From NCBI GenBank assembly GCA_025830695.1, contig GCA_025830695.1_4111.1: a stretch of 64,000 nucleotides of DNA; one strand, 5' to 3'. Shown piece by piece: positions 40,091 through 64,000 of this stretch. The translations under genes were made by a program, and so were the position numbers. How positions within the stretch are numbered: position 1 is the first letter of the stretch; the number at the start of each line of letters is the position of its first letter. The notes below the pieces were generated by a model. That model searched no databases and was not told the DNA's origin. It saw only the letters and a program-made list of their open reading frames with translations. The DNA comes from a phage.

Positions 40091-40274
40091 GTTTATGTTT
40101 GAGGTGTTTGTTGCATTCATCTTATGTGCTGTGTCTATTACTATTGCTTTAATCCCAGTAATCGTTTACCAAGTTAATGGTGGGACAGATCCAACAATTG
40201 ATATTTTACTTCGTTGTTTCGGGTTTTTTATATGGTTGGCGATGTTTATGTACTACATGCATCTTGAGGATTGA
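40077..40274 (+). CDS. small membrane protein
   Basis: 65-aa hydrophobic ORF. Confidence 0.45.
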   Translation: METIKFMFEVFVAFILCAVSITIALIPVIVYQVNGGTDPTIDILLRCFGFFIWLAMFMYYMHLED

Positions 40275-41107
40275 TTATGTCATTAGAAAAAATAATCATT
40301 TCTGAATTCCGAAAGTATATCATGGATTGTGATAGAGATGTACAGCGTAAGTTCAATGAGTACCTTGACAAATATCCGTATTTGATGTTTAATCCGTTTG
40401 AAACTGATGATGATTTATATCTTGGTTTTTACATAGGATTTACTCAACGAATTCTTCATAAAGATGAAATGAAACAATCTGAGATTTGGGTAGAAACTGA
40501 CTCATCCGAGTCTAATGTTTTTTATCTTTATACATATTATGCCGAAATTGTTAGAGATACGACACCTGATGGTTGTCTATTTGTACAATCTTCTGATATT
40601 GAAAGAATATATATCGAACCTGTATCTTTAGATATGGTTGCACAGCTTCCAACTATCCAACAGTTAGGTGCAGACGAATTAACTTATTCTGTATTTGAAT
40701 ATCTAGGTAGAGATGATTTGACTCAAGAAATTGATAAAATGGTTTCTAAATATACTTCATCACTTATTTCGAATGGTAAACTTAAATTAGAATTAATTTT
40801 TGAAGATACTAGTATTAATCCAGTAAGAGGGGTTACAATTGGAAAAGTTACCATACGTGTTGTTTACGATAATGAAGTACTAGGATATATTTCAAAACGT
40901 GGACATGATTTATGTATAATTAGTACATTCGTTATTTCTCGTAAAAAATGGAATGATTTAATGCAAAAAATCGTGGACGGCAGTAAAATTCGTGATATAA
41001 TATGTAATGACATGGTAATTATGAATCCTGATGTTGACTGTGATGTATATTTTCCAGTTCCTGGATTTACACGAGAAAACTTTAGTAAATTGAAGGATAC
41101 GAAATGA
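40271..41107 (+). CDS. hypothetical protein
   Basis: 278-aa ORF. Confidence 0.5.
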   Translation: MIMSLEKIIISEFRKYIMDCDRDVQRKFNEYLDKYPYLMFNPFETDDDLYLGFYIGFTQRILHKDEMKQSEIWVETDSSESNVFYLYTYYAEIVRDTTPDGCLFVQSSDIERIYIEPVSLDMVAQLPTIQQLGADELTYSVFEYLGRDDLTQEIDKMVSKYTSSLISNGKLKLELIFEDTSINPVRGVTIGKVTIRVVYDNEVLGYISKRGHDLCIISTFVISRKKWNDLMQKIVDGSKIRDIICNDMVIMNPDVDCDVYFPVPGFTRENFSKLKDTK

Positions 41108-45527: not shown

Positions 45528-45863
<336 letters not shown>

Positions 45864-45864
45864 A

Positions 45865-46047
45865 ATGACACACGAAGAATGGATGTCCAAACAGCATAAA
45901 GAACATGACTGCTTTGGGAATGGCATTCGTCAGGTACATTATGATATATTAAGAGATGAAAATCTTTTCAGGTCATATGTTTTGGATACCAGAAAACCCT
46001 GGTTTATATGCGAACTGGCATTTAGAAAGTCAAATAATCAAAACTAA
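45865..46047 (+). CDS. MTHEEW-family small protein (copy C)
   Basis: internal ATG of track ORF 45847..46047. Confidence 0.5.
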   Translation: MTHEEWMSKQHKEHDCFGNGIRQVHYDILRDENLFRSYVLDTRKPWFICELAFRKSNNQN

Positions 46048-46063
46048 ACAAGGAATACAAAAA

Positions 46064-46282
46064 ATGGAAACAACTTTATTTGAAGTTATTCAATCATTAA
46101 AACCTGAAGATGAGGTTCAAGTACTACTACATGGTTATCGTGTAAAAGGTACTGTGGTTTTAGTCAATGATACAACATTGGTTATTACAGAAACAAACCC
46201 ATATGATAGTAATCAACTTGCCAATATCCATATCGATATCACTGGAATTATTGGTGTCGGTGTATCTAAAACACTTGCATAA
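46064..46282 (+). CDS. hypothetical protein
   Basis: internal ATG of track ORF 45956..46282 with AAGGAAT RBS. Confidence 0.45.
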   Translation: METTLFEVIQSLKPEDEVQVLLHGYRVKGTVVLVNDTTLVITETNPYDSNQLANIHIDITGIIGVGVSKTLA

Positions 46283-46335
46283 ATCATTAATTCATTATAT
46301 AATGATTATCACTGGTTCTAGATGAGGATAATATT

Positions 46336-46608
46336 ATGCATTTTGAAAAATTCAACGTAAATCGTAACACACGCATTGAAGTTCTTTATGAAACTCAAGA
46401 CACCATTAGTATTCGTACAAGTAGTGGGGATGTATATCATGACTGTACGATTGGCTGGGAACAGGGAAGGACGCGTAGTGCAGTATTTGATAATTATCGC
46501 TTTTATCAAGGAGACACTACGATTTGGCCTGAATACGTAGAAGATATTGCGTTTGAAGATGAACATAAAGATGAATTTATCAAATTTAATCCTCAAACTG
46601 AATCATAA
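46336..46608 (+). CDS. hypothetical protein Confidence 0.45.
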   Translation: MHFEKFNVNRNTRIEVLYETQDTISIRTSSGDVYHDCTIGWEQGRTRSAVFDNYRFYQGDTTIWPEYVEDIAFEDEHKDEFIKFNPQTES

Positions 46609-46612
46609 ATAA

Positions 46613-46742
<130 letters not shown>

Positions 46743-46745
46743 AAT

Positions 46746-46846
<101 letters not shown>

Positions 46847-46848
46847 CA

Positions 46849-47009
<161 letters not shown>

Positions 47010-47013
<4 letters not shown>

Positions 47014-47170
47014 CACATGAAGAATGGATGAATGACATTAATTTTAGATATTCGGGTATCGGTAAATGGCTAAAGTATCATTGGGAATTCATTTCAGAGC
47101 CACATCTGTATGATAAACTTATCAACGATCCAGCATATGAAATGTACTTAATTGAACTACTGGTACGATT

Positions 47171-47174
<4 letters not shown>
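47010..47174 (+). CDS. MTHEEW-family small protein (copy E)
   Basis: near-identical to copy D over the first third; ATGA-coupled. Confidence 0.45.
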
Positions 47175-47336
<162 letters not shown>

Positions 47337-47344
47337 AAAAAAAG

Positions 47345-47758
<414 letters not shown>

Positions 47759-47815
47759 CTAAATAATTCAGTACTGAGGATATTAATATGTTTAAAGATG
47801 AACGTCCAGATTTGT

Positions 47816-47853
<38 letters not shown>

Positions 47854-47857
47854 GAAT

Positions 47858-48201
47858 TCCACAATCAGACGTATATGGTGTAAGTTACGTCGATGCAATC
47901 CAGAACAAGATCTCTGGTACTCTAGGAAGTGGTGAATGTTAACCTAGACGGGTTTGATAATTGGACGATAGGCAATTATTACTTGACTAGCAGGTTTAAA
48001 CTAGAGGTGACTATCCTTCACCAAACTGGAAAACCGGATGGACTTTTATTTAAAAGGGTAAGGCGTGGAAATATGTTTACAGAAGTTGCTTTTAGTAGCC
48101 TGTACGCCCCACGTCAAGGTAGCCGAAAGGCAAGTTAAGACGGGTGGTTATAAAGCTGAATTAACAGCGGCGTTTAAAAGCGTCACCATCCATTTTTTTT
48201 T
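47858..48201 (+). ncRNA. candidate structured non-coding RNA
   Basis: ORF-poor, GC-richer stretch between a promoter and a hairpin + T-run; long-range complementarity (GGTGAA...TTCACC), GAAA tetraloop CCGAAAGG. Confidence 0.35.
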
Positions 48202-48217
48202 AATTAAAGTTGGTGAT

Positions 48218-49027
<810 letters not shown>

Positions 49028-49051
49028 ACGAAATTACAATAGGAAATTAAA

Positions 49052-49237
49052 ATGCAACTTTTAATTCTTTCAATATTGTATATTATTATAATGGTTCCGA
49101 TATCAATACGTTTAATTACACTTGAACGATTTTTATCGAAACATGGAAATAGATCTATGATCTTAGTACCAATCGGGCTTATATTGTTTGGTATTTTTGC
49201 ATTTATAATGGGAATTAACGCTACATTCATTTCATAG
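49052..49237 (+). CDS. small membrane protein
   Basis: 61-aa two-helix hydrophobic ORF. Confidence 0.45.
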   Translation: MQLLILSILYIIIMVPISIRLITLERFLSKHGNRSMILVPIGLILFGIFAFIMGINATFIS

Positions 49238-49246
49238 GAAACAAAT

Positions 49247-49504
<258 letters not shown>

Positions 49505-49512
49505 GAATTTAA

Positions 49513-49914
49513 ATGAAAAAGAATGACTTGATCAAAATGCTTCAAGAAATTGACGGCAATCCAGAGATTGTTATTTGGAATGGATACGTCGATGATTATA
49601 TGAACATCGAAAAAGGCTTGACTAAAATCACTCTAGTCAAAGAAACCGAACAGTTTCTTCAGGGTGCATTAGAGCACGAATGGTGTGAACGTAACAATAC
49701 ATTCGACATTCCAGAAGACCAACGAACCAAGATTGCAGAACGTGCTAAAGAACTGCATAAGAAACGTGAATACGATTTCCAGAACCCATATGTCACTGAA
49801 GACGAATTCAATCGCTGGTACGGTAAAAAGAAATTGATAAAGTATGTCCTTTCACCTAAACTACGTGGTAAGACTTCACTTGGTGTATTCAACGCCGCAG
49901 ACTTAAACTACTAA
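49513..49914 (+). CDS. hypothetical protein Confidence 0.5.
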   Translation: MKKNDLIKMLQEIDGNPEIVIWNGYVDDYMNIEKGLTKITLVKETEQFLQGALEHEWCERNNTFDIPEDQRTKIAERAKELHKKREYDFQNPYVTEDEFNRWYGKKKLIKYVLSPKLRGKTSLGVFNAADLNY

Positions 49915-49926
49915 GAGAGTATTTAA

Positions 49927-50694
<768 letters not shown>

Positions 50695-50696
50695 TA

Positions 50697-50753
<57 letters not shown>

Positions 50754-50838
50754 AGTAAGAGTAAAAATGAAAGTAAGTAAAAAAACTACCAAGCAGCTTG
50801 AAGAACTTTGTAGTGCTGCACCTATGCCGACTCTTGGC

Positions 50839-50939
<101 letters not shown>

Positions 50940-50951
50940 TATCTTACTTCT

Positions 50952-51041
<90 letters not shown>

Positions 51042-62317: not shown

Positions 62318-63283
62318 GTGAAAAAGCTTGATTTAAATACAATTGCCGAAGAAGTTCTGGATGAATGTTTTGCTAATGAAGAAGTCAACACACTAGAAGC
62401 CTTAGATTTCGTTGAAGATAAAGATGATAATGAAGGTAAAGTACAAAGCAGTTTCAAATATAATATTACACTTAAGCGACCACCAAATGTTTCCAATGAA
62501 GATCTAATTCGTGATATTCAAGCTGGTATCAATGTAAAGAAAAACACTGAACTGTTAGTTCGTTACAATTATGGACTGATTATTGATGTAGCAAGTAAAT
62601 GTACTTGTTATATCCCATTTGAAGATAAGATTTCATATGGTGTTGAGGGGTTCATGAGAGCACTAAAAACCTTTGATCTTAATAAGAATGTTAAGTTCAT
62701 TACCTATGCTTCTTCTAGTATTTACATGACAGTCTATAACGAAAGTTCTGACGCTAACTATATGGTACACTTCCCACGTTATATGAGTGTTCATAAGATC
62801 AAAGTAAAAAGATTCTGCCAGGAATATATGCGTAAACATGGTGTTCGCCCAACACCTGAAATAATCTCAGAGGGTACTGGGATTGAGATTCAGCATGTTA
62901 ATAATTGTTTATTATTTCAAAGCGAATACACTTCACTGGATGCACCATTAGACGGTGTTACAGATGGTACATTAGGTGACATTATTCATTCACCTGCTTC
63001 TGATTTTAACCTCAATGTTGATAGTATCCGTGCACCTTTACGTTATGCTATCAATGAACTAACTAACGAATTGAGTACTAAAGAACGTGAGATTATCCAG
63101 CGTGTTCATGGTCTAGGTGAATATGAACCTGAAACGCTTCGTGAGATTGCTGATAATGGTTTTGTTGATGATAATGGAAAATATGTTAAATCCCGTTCAT
63201 CAATACACCGAAAGTACAGTGAAGCTATGCAAAAGCTTAAGAAGTTAGTACTTGCAAAAGGGTACGAATACGAAGATTTCTAA
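62318..63283 (+). CDS. sigma-70-family RNA polymerase sigma factor
   Basis: region 2 (VEGFMRALKTFD...KFITYASSSIY) and region 4 HTH (LSTKEREIIQRVHGLGEYEPETLREIA...HRKYSEAMQKLKK); GTG start 6 nt after an AGGAG RBS. Confidence 0.75.
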   Translation: MKKLDLNTIAEEVLDECFANEEVNTLEALDFVEDKDDNEGKVQSSFKYNITLKRPPNVSNEDLIRDIQAGINVKKNTELLVRYNYGLIIDVASKCTCYIPFEDKISYGVEGFMRALKTFDLNKNVKFITYASSSIYMTVYNESSDANYMVHFPRYMSVHKIKVKRFCQEYMRKHGVRPTPEIISEGTGIEIQHVNNCLLFQSEYTSLDAPLDGVTDGTLGDIIHSPASDFNLNVDSIRAPLRYAINELTNELSTKEREIIQRVHGLGEYEPETLREIADNGFVDDNGKYVKSRSSIHRKYSEAMQKLKKLVLAKGYEYEDF

Positions 63284-63290
63284 AGAACAA

Positions 63291-63317
63291 GGGTTGGCTT
63301 ATGCCAACCTTTTTTTA
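63291..63317 (+). terminator. rho-independent terminator
   Basis: GGGTTGGC-TTAT-GCCAACC + T7. Confidence 0.7.
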
Positions 63318-63319
63318 TG

Positions 63320-63933
63320 GGATGAAGTAAAAGTTTGTGATATAATTATCTTGTACAATTCTGTTGGCATGATATTCATGTACCTGATCCACTCGAAAAC
63401 GTAGAGGGCAGTTGAGCAGTCCGACAGTGCGAACAGCAAAAGAAACCCGTTAGATGTGGGCATAGTTTGAACCCCTCACGGCAATGCGGCTGTATAAAGA
63501 ACCACGTTAGGATAGCTGGTGGTTCCTTGATAGACATATAAGGATAACACCTTACGAATTATCTAAGGGAGAGTTATCGAATTTTGTACAGGAAAGTTGC
63601 GTCCAAAATTTGAGTACTCACATTAAGTATTTGATTGCATAGATACTTAATGAAGATACACTATGTTTAAAAGTGTAGACCGTCATATGAAACTGAAGTA
63701 GAGAGAAACAGGATGACCCGCTTTCGCACTCGTTATGAGTAATCTTCAATGCAATAGCTCTGATACCATCAGCGTCAAATTTCCCTCCTTGTGGGGGGAA
63801 GAAAAATCCCTTCCTCAAATCCCGTCAATATTAAAAGTCCTTGACAGTTATTAATCATTCGCGTAGAATACGTAGTATTAGAAGCGAACAGACATCTCGA
63901 AGAGATGGATGATTAACCATTAAGGAATATCCA
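63320..63933 (+). ncRNA. long ORF-free, GC-richer region; candidate structured RNA or long leader
   Basis: about 600 nt with no plus-strand ORF of 60 aa or more, in an otherwise tightly packed genome; visibly higher GC; TG-extended -10 at its 5' end; internal hairpins. Confidence 0.35.
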
Positions 63934-64000
63934 ATGAATTCAGTAATCTTTTTAGTAATAGCTTTTTCTGTTAATTCCGGTGTACAAATAACCCCAATGA
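63934..64000 (+). CDS. hypothetical membrane protein, 5' part (continues beyond the window)
   Basis: ATG with AAGGAAT RBS; hydrophobic N-terminus. Confidence 0.4.
   Translation, partial: MNSVIFLVIAFSVNSGVQITPM

Follow-up and report, generated by a model that had tools for sequence, protein, structure and literature searches.

A conserved, pseudoknotted non-coding RNA of about 480 nucleotides in RaK2-like jumbo phages and integrated elements of Enterobacterales

The region considered here comprises positions 63320 to 63933 of a 64,000-nucleotide stretch of phage DNA (assembly GCA_025830695.1), the whole of which is referred to as the window. It is 100% identical to Escherichia phage vB_EcoM_phAPEC6 (MK817115, Asteriusvirus), a jumbo phage of 352.6 kb, and the plus strand of the window corresponds to the minus strand of that record. 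Between a sigma-70-family gene upstream and a gene for a small hydrophobic protein downstream lies an intergenic unit. Its main part, from 63353 to about 63828 on the plus strand, constitutes a gene for a non-coding RNA with a length of about 480 nucleotides (nt), which has three paralogues elsewhere in the phAPEC6 genome. The RNA has about 17 helices and includes at least five long-range or pseudoknot helices, and there is very little room for doubt that the locus is a gene for a conserved structured RNA. An initial annotation, made without any database search, had described a region devoid of open reading frames (ORFs), distinct in composition and possibly encoding a structured RNA. Indeed, no plus-strand ORF of 60 amino acids (aa) or more occurs until the ATG at 63934, and the longest ones touching the region are found at 63252-63404 (50 aa) and 63735-63854 (39 aa). 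The G+C content amounts to 41.1% in the RNA core compared to 33.0% in the whole window, and sliding windows gave 0.38-0.41 in the region against 0.25-0.37 upstream. The proposal of a structured RNA is strongly supported by covariation among 64 homologues, a near-universal promoter and the lack of a conserved ORF.

In order to compare the homologues, 64 non-redundant copies that are less than 94% identical were aligned with MAFFT. In the alignments, near-invariant sequence blocks alternate with hairpins that differ in sequence and yet are still complementary. Helices were deduced from stacked compatible columns and hand-checked into a model that was tested on the MAFFT alignment of the 64 copies. 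The parts of the RNA gene in the window copy are given below from 5' to 3', with the percentage of paired cells and the number of covarying pairs.

63318-63346, plus strand: promoter of the RNA gene, with a -35-like TGGGAT (63318-63323), a 17-nt spacer carrying TG (63338-63339) and TATAAT (63341-63346)
63361-63430, plus strand: 5' domain with P1, P2, P3 and PKa
63361-63367 / 63421-63427, plus strand: P1, which encloses P2 and P3; 90.5% paired, 7 of 8 pairs covary
63368-63372 / 63376-63380, plus strand: P2; 85.7% paired, 4 of 4 covary
63384-63394 / 63404-63411, plus strand: P3, with the conserved 9-nt loop GAAAAYGUA; 93% paired, 7 of 8 covary
63416-63418 / 63428-63430, plus strand: PKa, a 3-bp pseudoknot stacked on P1; 100% paired, 2 of 3 covary
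63433-63493, plus strand: P5-P7 domain with P5, P6 and P7
63433-63437 / 63489-63493, plus strand: P5; 100% paired, 3 of 5 covary
63447-63450 / 63478-63481, plus strand: P6; 100% paired, 1 of 4 covary
63458-63460 / 63472-63474, plus strand: P7, a variable insert; 55% paired on this alignment
63482-63488, plus strand: near-invariant junction CAAUGCG
63484-63564, plus strand: central region with P8, P9, PK3 and PK4
63484-63486 / 63535-63537, plus strand: PK4, AUG of CAAUGCG with CAU in GAUAGACAUAU; 100% paired, G-C replaced by A-U in 13 sequences
63499-63505 / 63519-63525, plus strand: P8 hairpin; 90% paired, 7 of 7 covary, up to 4 pair types
63510-63513 / 63561-63564, plus strand: PK3, P8 loop with four nt ending at the first U of UAAGGGAG; 77.5% paired, 4 of 4 covary
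63539-63543 / 63550-63554, plus strand: P9 hairpin; 78% paired
63564-63571, plus strand: invariant UAAGGGAG
63571-63574 / 63616-63619 and 63577-63586 / 63604-63613, plus strand: P10; closing pairs 100% paired, 3 of 3 covary
63621-63755, plus strand: 3' domain with P11 to P15, PK1 and PK2
63621-63630 / 63643-63652, plus strand: P11, with a 12-nt loop; 94% paired, 10 of 10 covary
63634-63640 / 63749-63755, plus strand: PK1, 7 bp between the P11 loop and the strand just 3' of P13; 99.3% paired, 7 of 7 covary, up to four pair types
63657-63661 / 63673-63677, plus strand: P12; 93% paired
63682-63686 / 63713-63717, plus strand: PK2, GUUGC with GCAAC in the P14 loop; 100% paired
63694-63698 / 63744-63748, plus strand: P13; 98.8% paired, 5 of 5 covary
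63701-63705 / 63721-63725, plus strand: P14; 99.7% paired
63728-63732 / 63736-63740, plus strand: P15; 88% paired
63760-63828, plus strand: 3' tail with P16, motif 1, P17 and motif 2
63760-63764 / 63768-63772, plus strand: P16 hairpin, which runs into motif 1
63768-63778, plus strand: motif 1, AUCAGCGUCAA; family consensus CAUCAKCGUCAR
63780-63788 / 63793-63801, plus strand: P17, a G-rich hairpin already singled out in the initial annotation; 84% paired
63816-63828, plus strand: motif 2, CAAAUCCCGUCAA; family consensus CAAAUCYCGUCAR

The model comprises 97 base pairs in 17 helices, three of which are pseudoknots. Altogether 92.3% of the cells are paired, compared to 36-44% in slid controls, where each 3' partner is displaced by 1-3 columns, and 79 of the 97 pairs change on both sides. 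Double-change cells number 1087 as compared to 121-170 in these controls, the covariation score amounts to 0.495 against at most 0.10 in the controls, and not one of 500 shuffles reached any of the observed values; slid partners and shuffles are controls rather than a phylogeny-aware significance test. PK3 and PK4 came from a mutual-information scan of unpaired columns, in which P2, flagged earlier by the helix search, was seen again. Jointly, P2, PK3 and PK4 are 86.9% paired, compared to 25-46% in slid controls. All 25 RNA helix segments checked in the window copy are perfectly complementary, and the covarying partners include pairs more than 100 nt apart. The compensatory substitutions for which a comparison with related phages had been recommended are therefore present in the homologous regions.

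Support from the MAFFT alignment is weaker for P7, P9, P16 and PK3 (55-78% paired or uncounted), which is partly a matter of misalignment, the row of the window copy being shifted by 10 columns at P1. The stacked-helix search replaced two other procedures, namely RNAalifold on the first MAFFT alignment, which returned a partial and partly wrong structure, and a raw all-against-all list of compatible pairs, which was swamped by phylogenetic noise. The periphery of the RNA is built from modules: P7 comes in two or more alternative forms, and P10 bears an optional module (UUUUGUACA..GUUGCGUCCAAAAUUU) that is absent from other copies or lies inside P15. This module of about 35 nt, UUUUGUACAAUAUAGAUCCGUCCAAAAUUU, is located in P10 in the window copy (63577-63613) and others, whereas copy C (L007) contains it twice, at both P10 and P15. 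It appears to behave like a transposable structural module, and such swapping is typical of tertiary-contact elements in large RNAs. The G run of P17 never varies, and G-U wobbles arise where the pyrimidine arm has U in place of C. The two motifs of the 3' tail, A[U/C]CAnCGUCA and AAA[U/C]CnCGUCA (alignment columns about 750-763 and 845-857, window 63768-63778 and 63816-63828), change in parallel and not in complement, with UU in 44 and CC in 20 sequences. Such a pattern suggests that one partner may read both CGUCA motifs.

The TG-extended -10 element reported in the initial annotation is perfect, and transcription would start near 63353. Across the 64 copies, T9 of the promoter columns is invariant and G10, T12, A13, T14 and A15 are conserved in at least 90%, which gives TGnTATA(A/C)T. 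This element is found about 15-60 nt 5' of P1 in nearly all of the 64 copies, and a TGRRAC element is present 17 nt further upstream in many of them. Genome-wide, phAPEC6 contains TGnTATAAT at 84 sites on the coding strand compared to 20 on the other strand. The layout is that of a plus-strand gene, with the promoter 5' and terminators 3', and the RNA has a promoter of its own in the form of a sequence signal. At the 3' end, a terminator-like hairpin with a U run follows directly after motif 1, before P17, in 32 of the 64 copies. The window copy has a 12-nt linker at this place and no terminator-like site from 63778 to the next gene; together with 27 others it belongs to those in which only a 12-22-nt linker separates motif 1 from P17. 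Four further copies have a longer insert, which was not called by the terminator scan. Since the window copy lacks a terminator, its transcript would be processed or would continue into the next unit, which has a strong promoter of its own. In copy D (L008:32100-32165, minus strand) and its orthologues L029, L032, L039, L042, L048 and L049, a terminator-like hairpin with a U run is located right after TATAAT, and the start site deduced for this group falls inside the 5' arm of the hairpin. A hairpin in this position would block read-through from upstream and spare the RNA's own transcripts.

The genome of phAPEC6 was rebuilt to 352,598 bp and searched for copies with a profile hidden Markov model (HMM). 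Exactly four copies were found on the reassembled genome, all on one strand, at the following positions of the record.

40146-40655, the strand shared by all four: copy A, the window copy
150792-151328, same strand: copy B
229515-230113, same strand: copy C
285201-285760, same strand: copy D

The mutual identity of these copies is only about 70-80%. The closest relative of each paralogue is found in another phage genus (84-98% identity), compared to 68-85% within its own genome. As each paralogue is nearer to a copy from another genus than to the copies in its own genome, the duplication is old and each paralogue has been separately maintained. In a BLAST search 62 phage records matched, with about four places each (3-5). 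In the GenBank phage collection, the carriers are RaK2-like jumbo phages only (62-70 records, mostly with 3-5 places), and the weakest matches, from Klebsiella, have one place each. The hosts of the carrier jumbo phages are Escherichia, Salmonella, Erwinia, Klebsiella, Yersinia, Serratia, Cronobacter, Pectobacterium and Xanthomonas. Pattern scans of IMG/VR, the GTDB genome set and JGI/ENA metagenomes, followed by an HMM filter, brought the collection to about 140 copies, and no copy was found in the plasmid collection. About 46 extra viral loci (L061-L105) that had been picked up with the loose DNA pattern GACCGT..TAGAGAGAAAC were discarded as chance matches, as the profile HMM passed none of them.

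Ten matches were found in bacterial assemblies, all of them genuine (E <= 1e-47). Among the carriers, Serratia fonticola and Serratia sp. L9 are represented by complete chromosomes, and Citrobacter amalonaticus, Enterobacter chinensis, Silvania and Buttiauxella by contigs. In the integrated elements of Serratia, Citrobacter, Enterobacter and E. coli there is one copy per element, next to the integrase. A same-strand integrase gene lies upstream in seven of the ten bacterial loci, directly adjoining the RNA in six; five of these loci have a large serine recombinase and the other two an integrase of the tyrosine type. At the S. fonticola locus two ParB/RepB-like genes are placed between the integrase and the RNA. 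A convergent gene for a cI-like repressor (HTH_3 and Peptidase_S24) is located 3' of the RNA in five bacterial loci. PHROGs and Pfam searches on the neighbors of the bacterial copies revealed only integrase, cI/cro-type switch and ParB-like genes. The RNA is a cargo of mobile elements, and the interval that it occupies in bacteria is where accessory genes expressed in lysogens usually sit.

Two of these islands can be described more closely. In the chromosome of S. fonticola GTA-SR07 (locus L114 61-4248), a large serine recombinase gene, the two tandem ParB/RepB-like genes and the RNA are found at the edge of an island that adjoins rof-rof-tilS, rof being duplicated at the junction. Among 5,426 complete E. 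coli genomes, two carry a copy, in a small island beside ffs and without annotation of the RNA. In E. coli LR-29-1 (NZ_AP027515; locus L191 4791-15685), the island beside ffs (4.5S RNA) is about 10 kb long and contains an IS3-disrupted tyrosine integrase gene as well as genes for DUF4326, DUF488, dual-OB proteins and a small serine recombinase, a gene set that looks like a defense island.

The surroundings of the window copy consist of the following features.

62318-63283, plus strand: sigma-70-family gene (321 aa) with Sigma70_r2/r3/r4 domains, annotated as RpoD-like in phAPEC6
63289-63316, plus strand: intrinsic terminator of the sigma-70-family gene, a 10-bp stem (63289-63312) followed by a T run
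63841-63936, plus strand: next-gene unit outside the RNA core, with promoter, GAA-loop hairpin, ribosome-binding site and ATG
63841-63869, plus strand: sigma-70 promoter of the next gene, TTGACA (63841-63846), 17-nt spacer and TAGAAT (63864-63869), 11 of 12 matches
63893-63907, plus strand: GAA-loop hairpin CAUCUC-GAA-GAGAUG, 3' of the next-gene promoter
63922-63927 and 63934, plus strand: ribosome-binding site AAGGAA and ATG of the gene for gp065c, a 69-aa hydrophobic protein

The intrinsic terminator marks the start of the intergenic unit, as had been supposed. The unit was also correctly said to end at the ribosome-binding site of the next gene, but its last 95 nt or so lie outside the conserved RNA core. 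A separate late sigma factor (gp237c) is encoded elsewhere in the phAPEC6 genome, and among the RNA paralogues a sigma gene adjoins copy A only. The GAA-loop hairpin recurs 3' of other copies with compensatory changes (CAUUC/GAAUG, CAUAC/GUAUG and CAAUC/GAUUG) and may represent a further small conserved RNA element, located in the 5' untranslated region of downstream genes. Six transfer RNA (tRNA) genes (Gly-TCC, Ser-TGA, Ser-GCT, Met-CAT, Asn-GTT and Thr-TGT) are clustered on the plus strand at 45550-51031, about 12 kb away from the RNA gene and not adjoining it.

How could such an RNA work? According to the explanation proposed here, the RNA would be transcribed by host RNA polymerase, probably in early infection, with its own extended -10 element as promoter, and in about half of the family the transcript would end at the intrinsic terminator after CAUCAKCGUCAR. 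The molecule would adopt a compact tertiary fold, in which near-invariant junctions are held by pseudoknots and a peripheral module swaps positions, and would act in trans on some factor that Enterobacterales-type hosts share, either by binding or sequestering a protein or an RNA or by serving as a scaffold. Such a trans role would be of use to a lytic jumbo phage and to a resident element alike, whether in taking over the host or in conflict between elements. For a trans-acting binder or scaffold the case is evenly balanced, and the mechanism of trans action through the tertiary fold is speculative. In broader terms, it is somewhat probable that the family represents an undescribed class of large, ornate, multi-pseudoknotted RNA, common to RaK2-like jumbo phages and to Enterobacterales elements of the integrase-plus-cI type, which would act alone, either by catalysis as a ribozyme, by forming an RNA-only assembly, or as decoy or scaffold in conflicts of phage with host or of element with element.

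A number of observations weigh against a free-standing structured RNA of this kind. The folding energy of the window sequence is ordinary on both strands (z = -1.26 for plus and -1.18 for minus versus dinucleotide shuffles), so stable hairpins as such do not exceed chance expectation; the hairpin UUUCCCUCC-UUGU-GGGGGGAAG, which the initial annotation gave as an example of them, is present at 63780-63801. Because single-sequence folding energy is unexceptional, the case for structure rests on comparison and not on energy. G-U cells outnumber A-C cells by 335 to 160, which favors the plus strand, but this asymmetry is only about two-fold. In half of the copies, that of the window among them, no terminator precedes the next co-directional gene, and P17 and motif 2 are conserved beyond the terminator position as strongly as the core, which fits poorly with a transcript that ends at the terminator. 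No partner of the CGUCA motifs or of the RNA as a whole was found. The phAPEC6 paper does not mention the region and contains no RNA sequencing (RNA-seq), so that expression and the 5' and 3' ends of the RNA are deduced. Finally, at least 27 of the 64 copies have a co-directional ORF within 76-190 nt, which leaves room for a cis role in downstream expression.

Such a cis-acting leader is kept as the main rival, unlikely as we consider it. The RNA would alter either its own transcript or the polymerase producing it, with the result that the terminator is read through by processive antitermination of the HK022 put or EAR kind, or it would stabilize or control the variable genes downstream. The usual order in jumbo phages, i.e. 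promoter, RNA, terminator-like hairpin, P17 with motif 2, conserved spacer and co-directional gene, speaks for this idea, as do the conservation past the terminator and the missing terminator in front of gp065c in the window copy. It is harder to reconcile with copy B, which sits between opposite-strand genes, and with several prophage copies, which face the convergent cI-like repressor gene and lack a co-directional gene downstream. Where co-directional ORFs do follow, their products are unrelated (ADP-ribosylglycohydrolase-like, methyltransferase-like, HNH-like and unknown proteins). The convergent context of copy B and the varied downstream products argue against a riboswitch or a dedicated leader, an option left by the initial annotation that is now disfavored; a consistent placement 5' of a co-directional gene or gene class is not seen. 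No recurrent protein partner was found downstream of the copies, and the jumbo-phage copies have no recurrent neighbor at all. In addition, a separate strong promoter stands between the window RNA and the ribosome-binding site of the next gene, 28 of the 64 copies lack a terminator that would need to be overcome, and only four of the many transcription units in the genome carry the RNA. With about 480 nt and five tertiary helices, it exceeds the known antitermination RNAs several-fold in size. The sequence of the terminator stem varies freely, and no conserved competing pairing was noticed, although no systematic search for alternatives was made. We infer that the RNA is a self-contained molecule and not a regulator of the gene that follows. 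A ribozyme is a little less likely still; in this reading the conserved junctions and pseudoknots would make up an active site with which the RNA processes itself or acts on another RNA, and the CGUCA motifs could be substrate or processing sites. Large size, many pseudoknots and near-invariant unpaired junctions are typical of large ribozymes, and the RNA combines its size and number of pseudoknots with the near-invariant unpaired junctions AUGAG, CAAUGCG, AUAAAG, GAUAGA, UAAGGGAG, CGACCGUU, GAAAC and AACCCGC; moreover, the terminator-less copies need some route to form a 3' end. Yet no Rfam ribozyme family matched, sequence permits no inference of chemistry, and the equally ornate ROOL, GOLLD and OLE RNAs are without demonstrated catalysis (PMC12286853).

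The remaining alternatives are far weaker. An origin transcript that forms a persistent R-loop and primes DNA synthesis like ColE1 RNA II, with the invariant G run as hybrid anchor, is improbable. Several dispersed copies in one orientation, each with a promoter, an invariant GGGGGG run near the 3' end and the T4-like replication and recombination genes of the phage, including a UvsW-type RNA-DNA helicase, would suit it. The cumulative GC skew of the 352,598-bp genome does not turn at any of the four copies, a weak test as the skew tracks gene orientation; the interval between integrase and repressor is not the site of the replication modules of temperate elements; no plasmid carries a copy; and the tertiary structure is conserved beyond the needs of a primer. 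The idea of a repeat that works at the DNA level, as a recombination hotspot, an array of protein-binding sites or a miniature mobile element without RNA function, is close to refuted. It could draw on the multiple copies with variable flanking cargo genes and on the two direct-repeat motifs that change in parallel, and it fails to account for compensatory changes that preserve 17 helices plus P2, PK3 and PK4, some of them between distant columns, for G-U wobbles tolerated on one strand and for a promoter kept in nearly all copies. Terminal inverted repeats are missing as well: the inverted repeats belong to the sigma terminator, P8, P10, P11 or PK1 or arise by chance, and none brackets the element. 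A degraded or frameshifted coding gene, or several small ORFs, can be considered refuted for practical purposes. Some depositors annotated up to five 'hypothetical proteins' over the RNA locus (e.g. OR699282, PQ390715, PP886230 and PQ330092), and stop-free stretches on the minus strand slightly exceed those of shuffles in length (median 78 aa versus 65 aa). The careful annotations of phAPEC6, 121Q and G17, however, leave the region empty, and the four or five 'hypothetical proteins' across the locus are almost certainly spurious calls. The longest stop-free stretches vary in place and frame between copies and encode unrelated peptides, indels fall in helices and loops and not in multiples of three, no reading frame is conserved across the copies, and no frameshift-corrected ORF, which had been named as a possible refutation, explains the region.

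A free-standing RNA with such a conserved tertiary architecture would be of interest for several reasons, as large RNAs of this type are rare in bacteria and phages. Cultivable E. coli phages such as phAPEC6, 121Q, PBECO4, G17 and Sharanji carry members of the family, as do a few chromosomes of E. coli, Citrobacter and Serratia, so that genetic and biochemical work can begin at once. Natural variation is already sufficient for a detailed covariation model, and four diverged paralogues in one genome provide a natural comparison. That giant phages with a strictly lytic cycle carry the RNA, and temperate elements as well, next to their integrase gene, suggests a function that can be passed from one mobile element to another, which is the pattern of defense and counter-defense genes. 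The analysis also corrects the annotation of several GenBank records in which spurious 'hypothetical proteins' cover RNA loci.

Known RNA families offer no match. A scan of the whole window with Rfam 15 at gathering thresholds detected 5 tRNAs only, and with E values up to 10 the interval 63200-64000 gave only terminator-like chance matches of at most 20 bits. Likewise, six other family members had no match inside the element with E up to 1, and ARAGORN detected neither a tRNA nor a transfer-messenger RNA (tmRNA) in the region. The covariance-model scan proposed in the initial annotation thus left the RNA unassigned in Rfam 15, the unmatched families including GOLLD, ROOL, HEARO, OLE, raiA, tmRNA, RNase P, group I and group II introns, 6S and riboswitches. 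Full-text literature searches retrieved no description of the RNA family, and a 2026 preprint on the mining of non-coding RNAs (ncRNAs), judged by term counts only, never mentions jumbo phages or integrases (10.64898/2026.09.22.753630). The RNA has no counterpart among the catalogued families, and it is best read as a self-contained structured RNA of a new class, transcribed early.

A precedent for abundant long ncRNAs in such phages comes from PA5oct, a distantly related jumbo phage with links to the 121Q, PBECO4 and RaK2 group. RNA-seq defined four ORF-free transcripts (ncRNA001-004) at up to 5% of the phage reads, of which one is 451 nt long and accounts for 1-5%, and no structure or conservation was reported for them (PMC7318152). 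The 451-nt transcript is ncRNA002 (MK797984, 14952-15402), which is G+C-rich, ORF-free, ended by a terminator and abundant in RNA-seq. A profile HMM search that covered ncRNA001 and ncRNA002 (locus L106) listed no match in them at E up to 1e-3.

The processive antitermination RNAs of the HK022 put and EAR type share with the phage RNA a promoter-proximal structured RNA followed by a terminator and then genes, an architecture that fits about half of the copies. Antitermination RNAs of the put/EAR type are simple stem-loops of about 65-120 nt, whereas the phage RNA measures about 480 nt and many of its copies have no terminator or no co-directional gene downstream. ColE1 RNA II, in turn, is a promoter-driven, structured RNA of about 500 nt with a G-rich segment near its 3' end. 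The phage RNA differs from it in having no origin signal in skew or context at its copies, in being absent from plasmids and in its far more extensive tertiary pairing. HEARO, the omega-RNA of IscB, is a large pseudoknotted RNA of mobile elements that remained an orphan class until its protein partner was recognized. To our knowledge, HEARO always adjoins its nuclease gene; the sole recurrent neighbor of the phage RNA is a serine or tyrosine integrase gene, in bacterial elements only.

Closest in kind, and not homologous, are ROOL and GOLLD. Like the phage RNA, they are several hundred nt long, contain many helices and pseudoknots, are borne by phages or prophages, and have neither an obligatory protein partner nor a known function. 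The hallmarks of ornate RNAs, i.e. more than 400 nt, several pseudoknots, a phage or prophage distribution and no fixed protein partner, are all found in the phage RNA family. ROOL and GOLLD sequences reportedly come largely from Lactobacillales and from rumen and lake metagenomes. The phage RNA, in contrast, belongs to phages and elements of Enterobacterales and Xanthomonas, is maintained as 3-5 ancient paralogues per jumbo-phage genome, has no adjoining tRNAs in the window and lacks any homology to ROOL and GOLLD in sequence or structure (Rfam models, E up to 10). ROOL and GOLLD form RNA-only homo-oligomers, as visualized by cryo-electron microscopy (PMC12286853). Large RNAs discovered earlier have proved to be ribozymes, guide RNAs (HEARO/omega-RNA) or self-assembling cages (ROOL and GOLLD).

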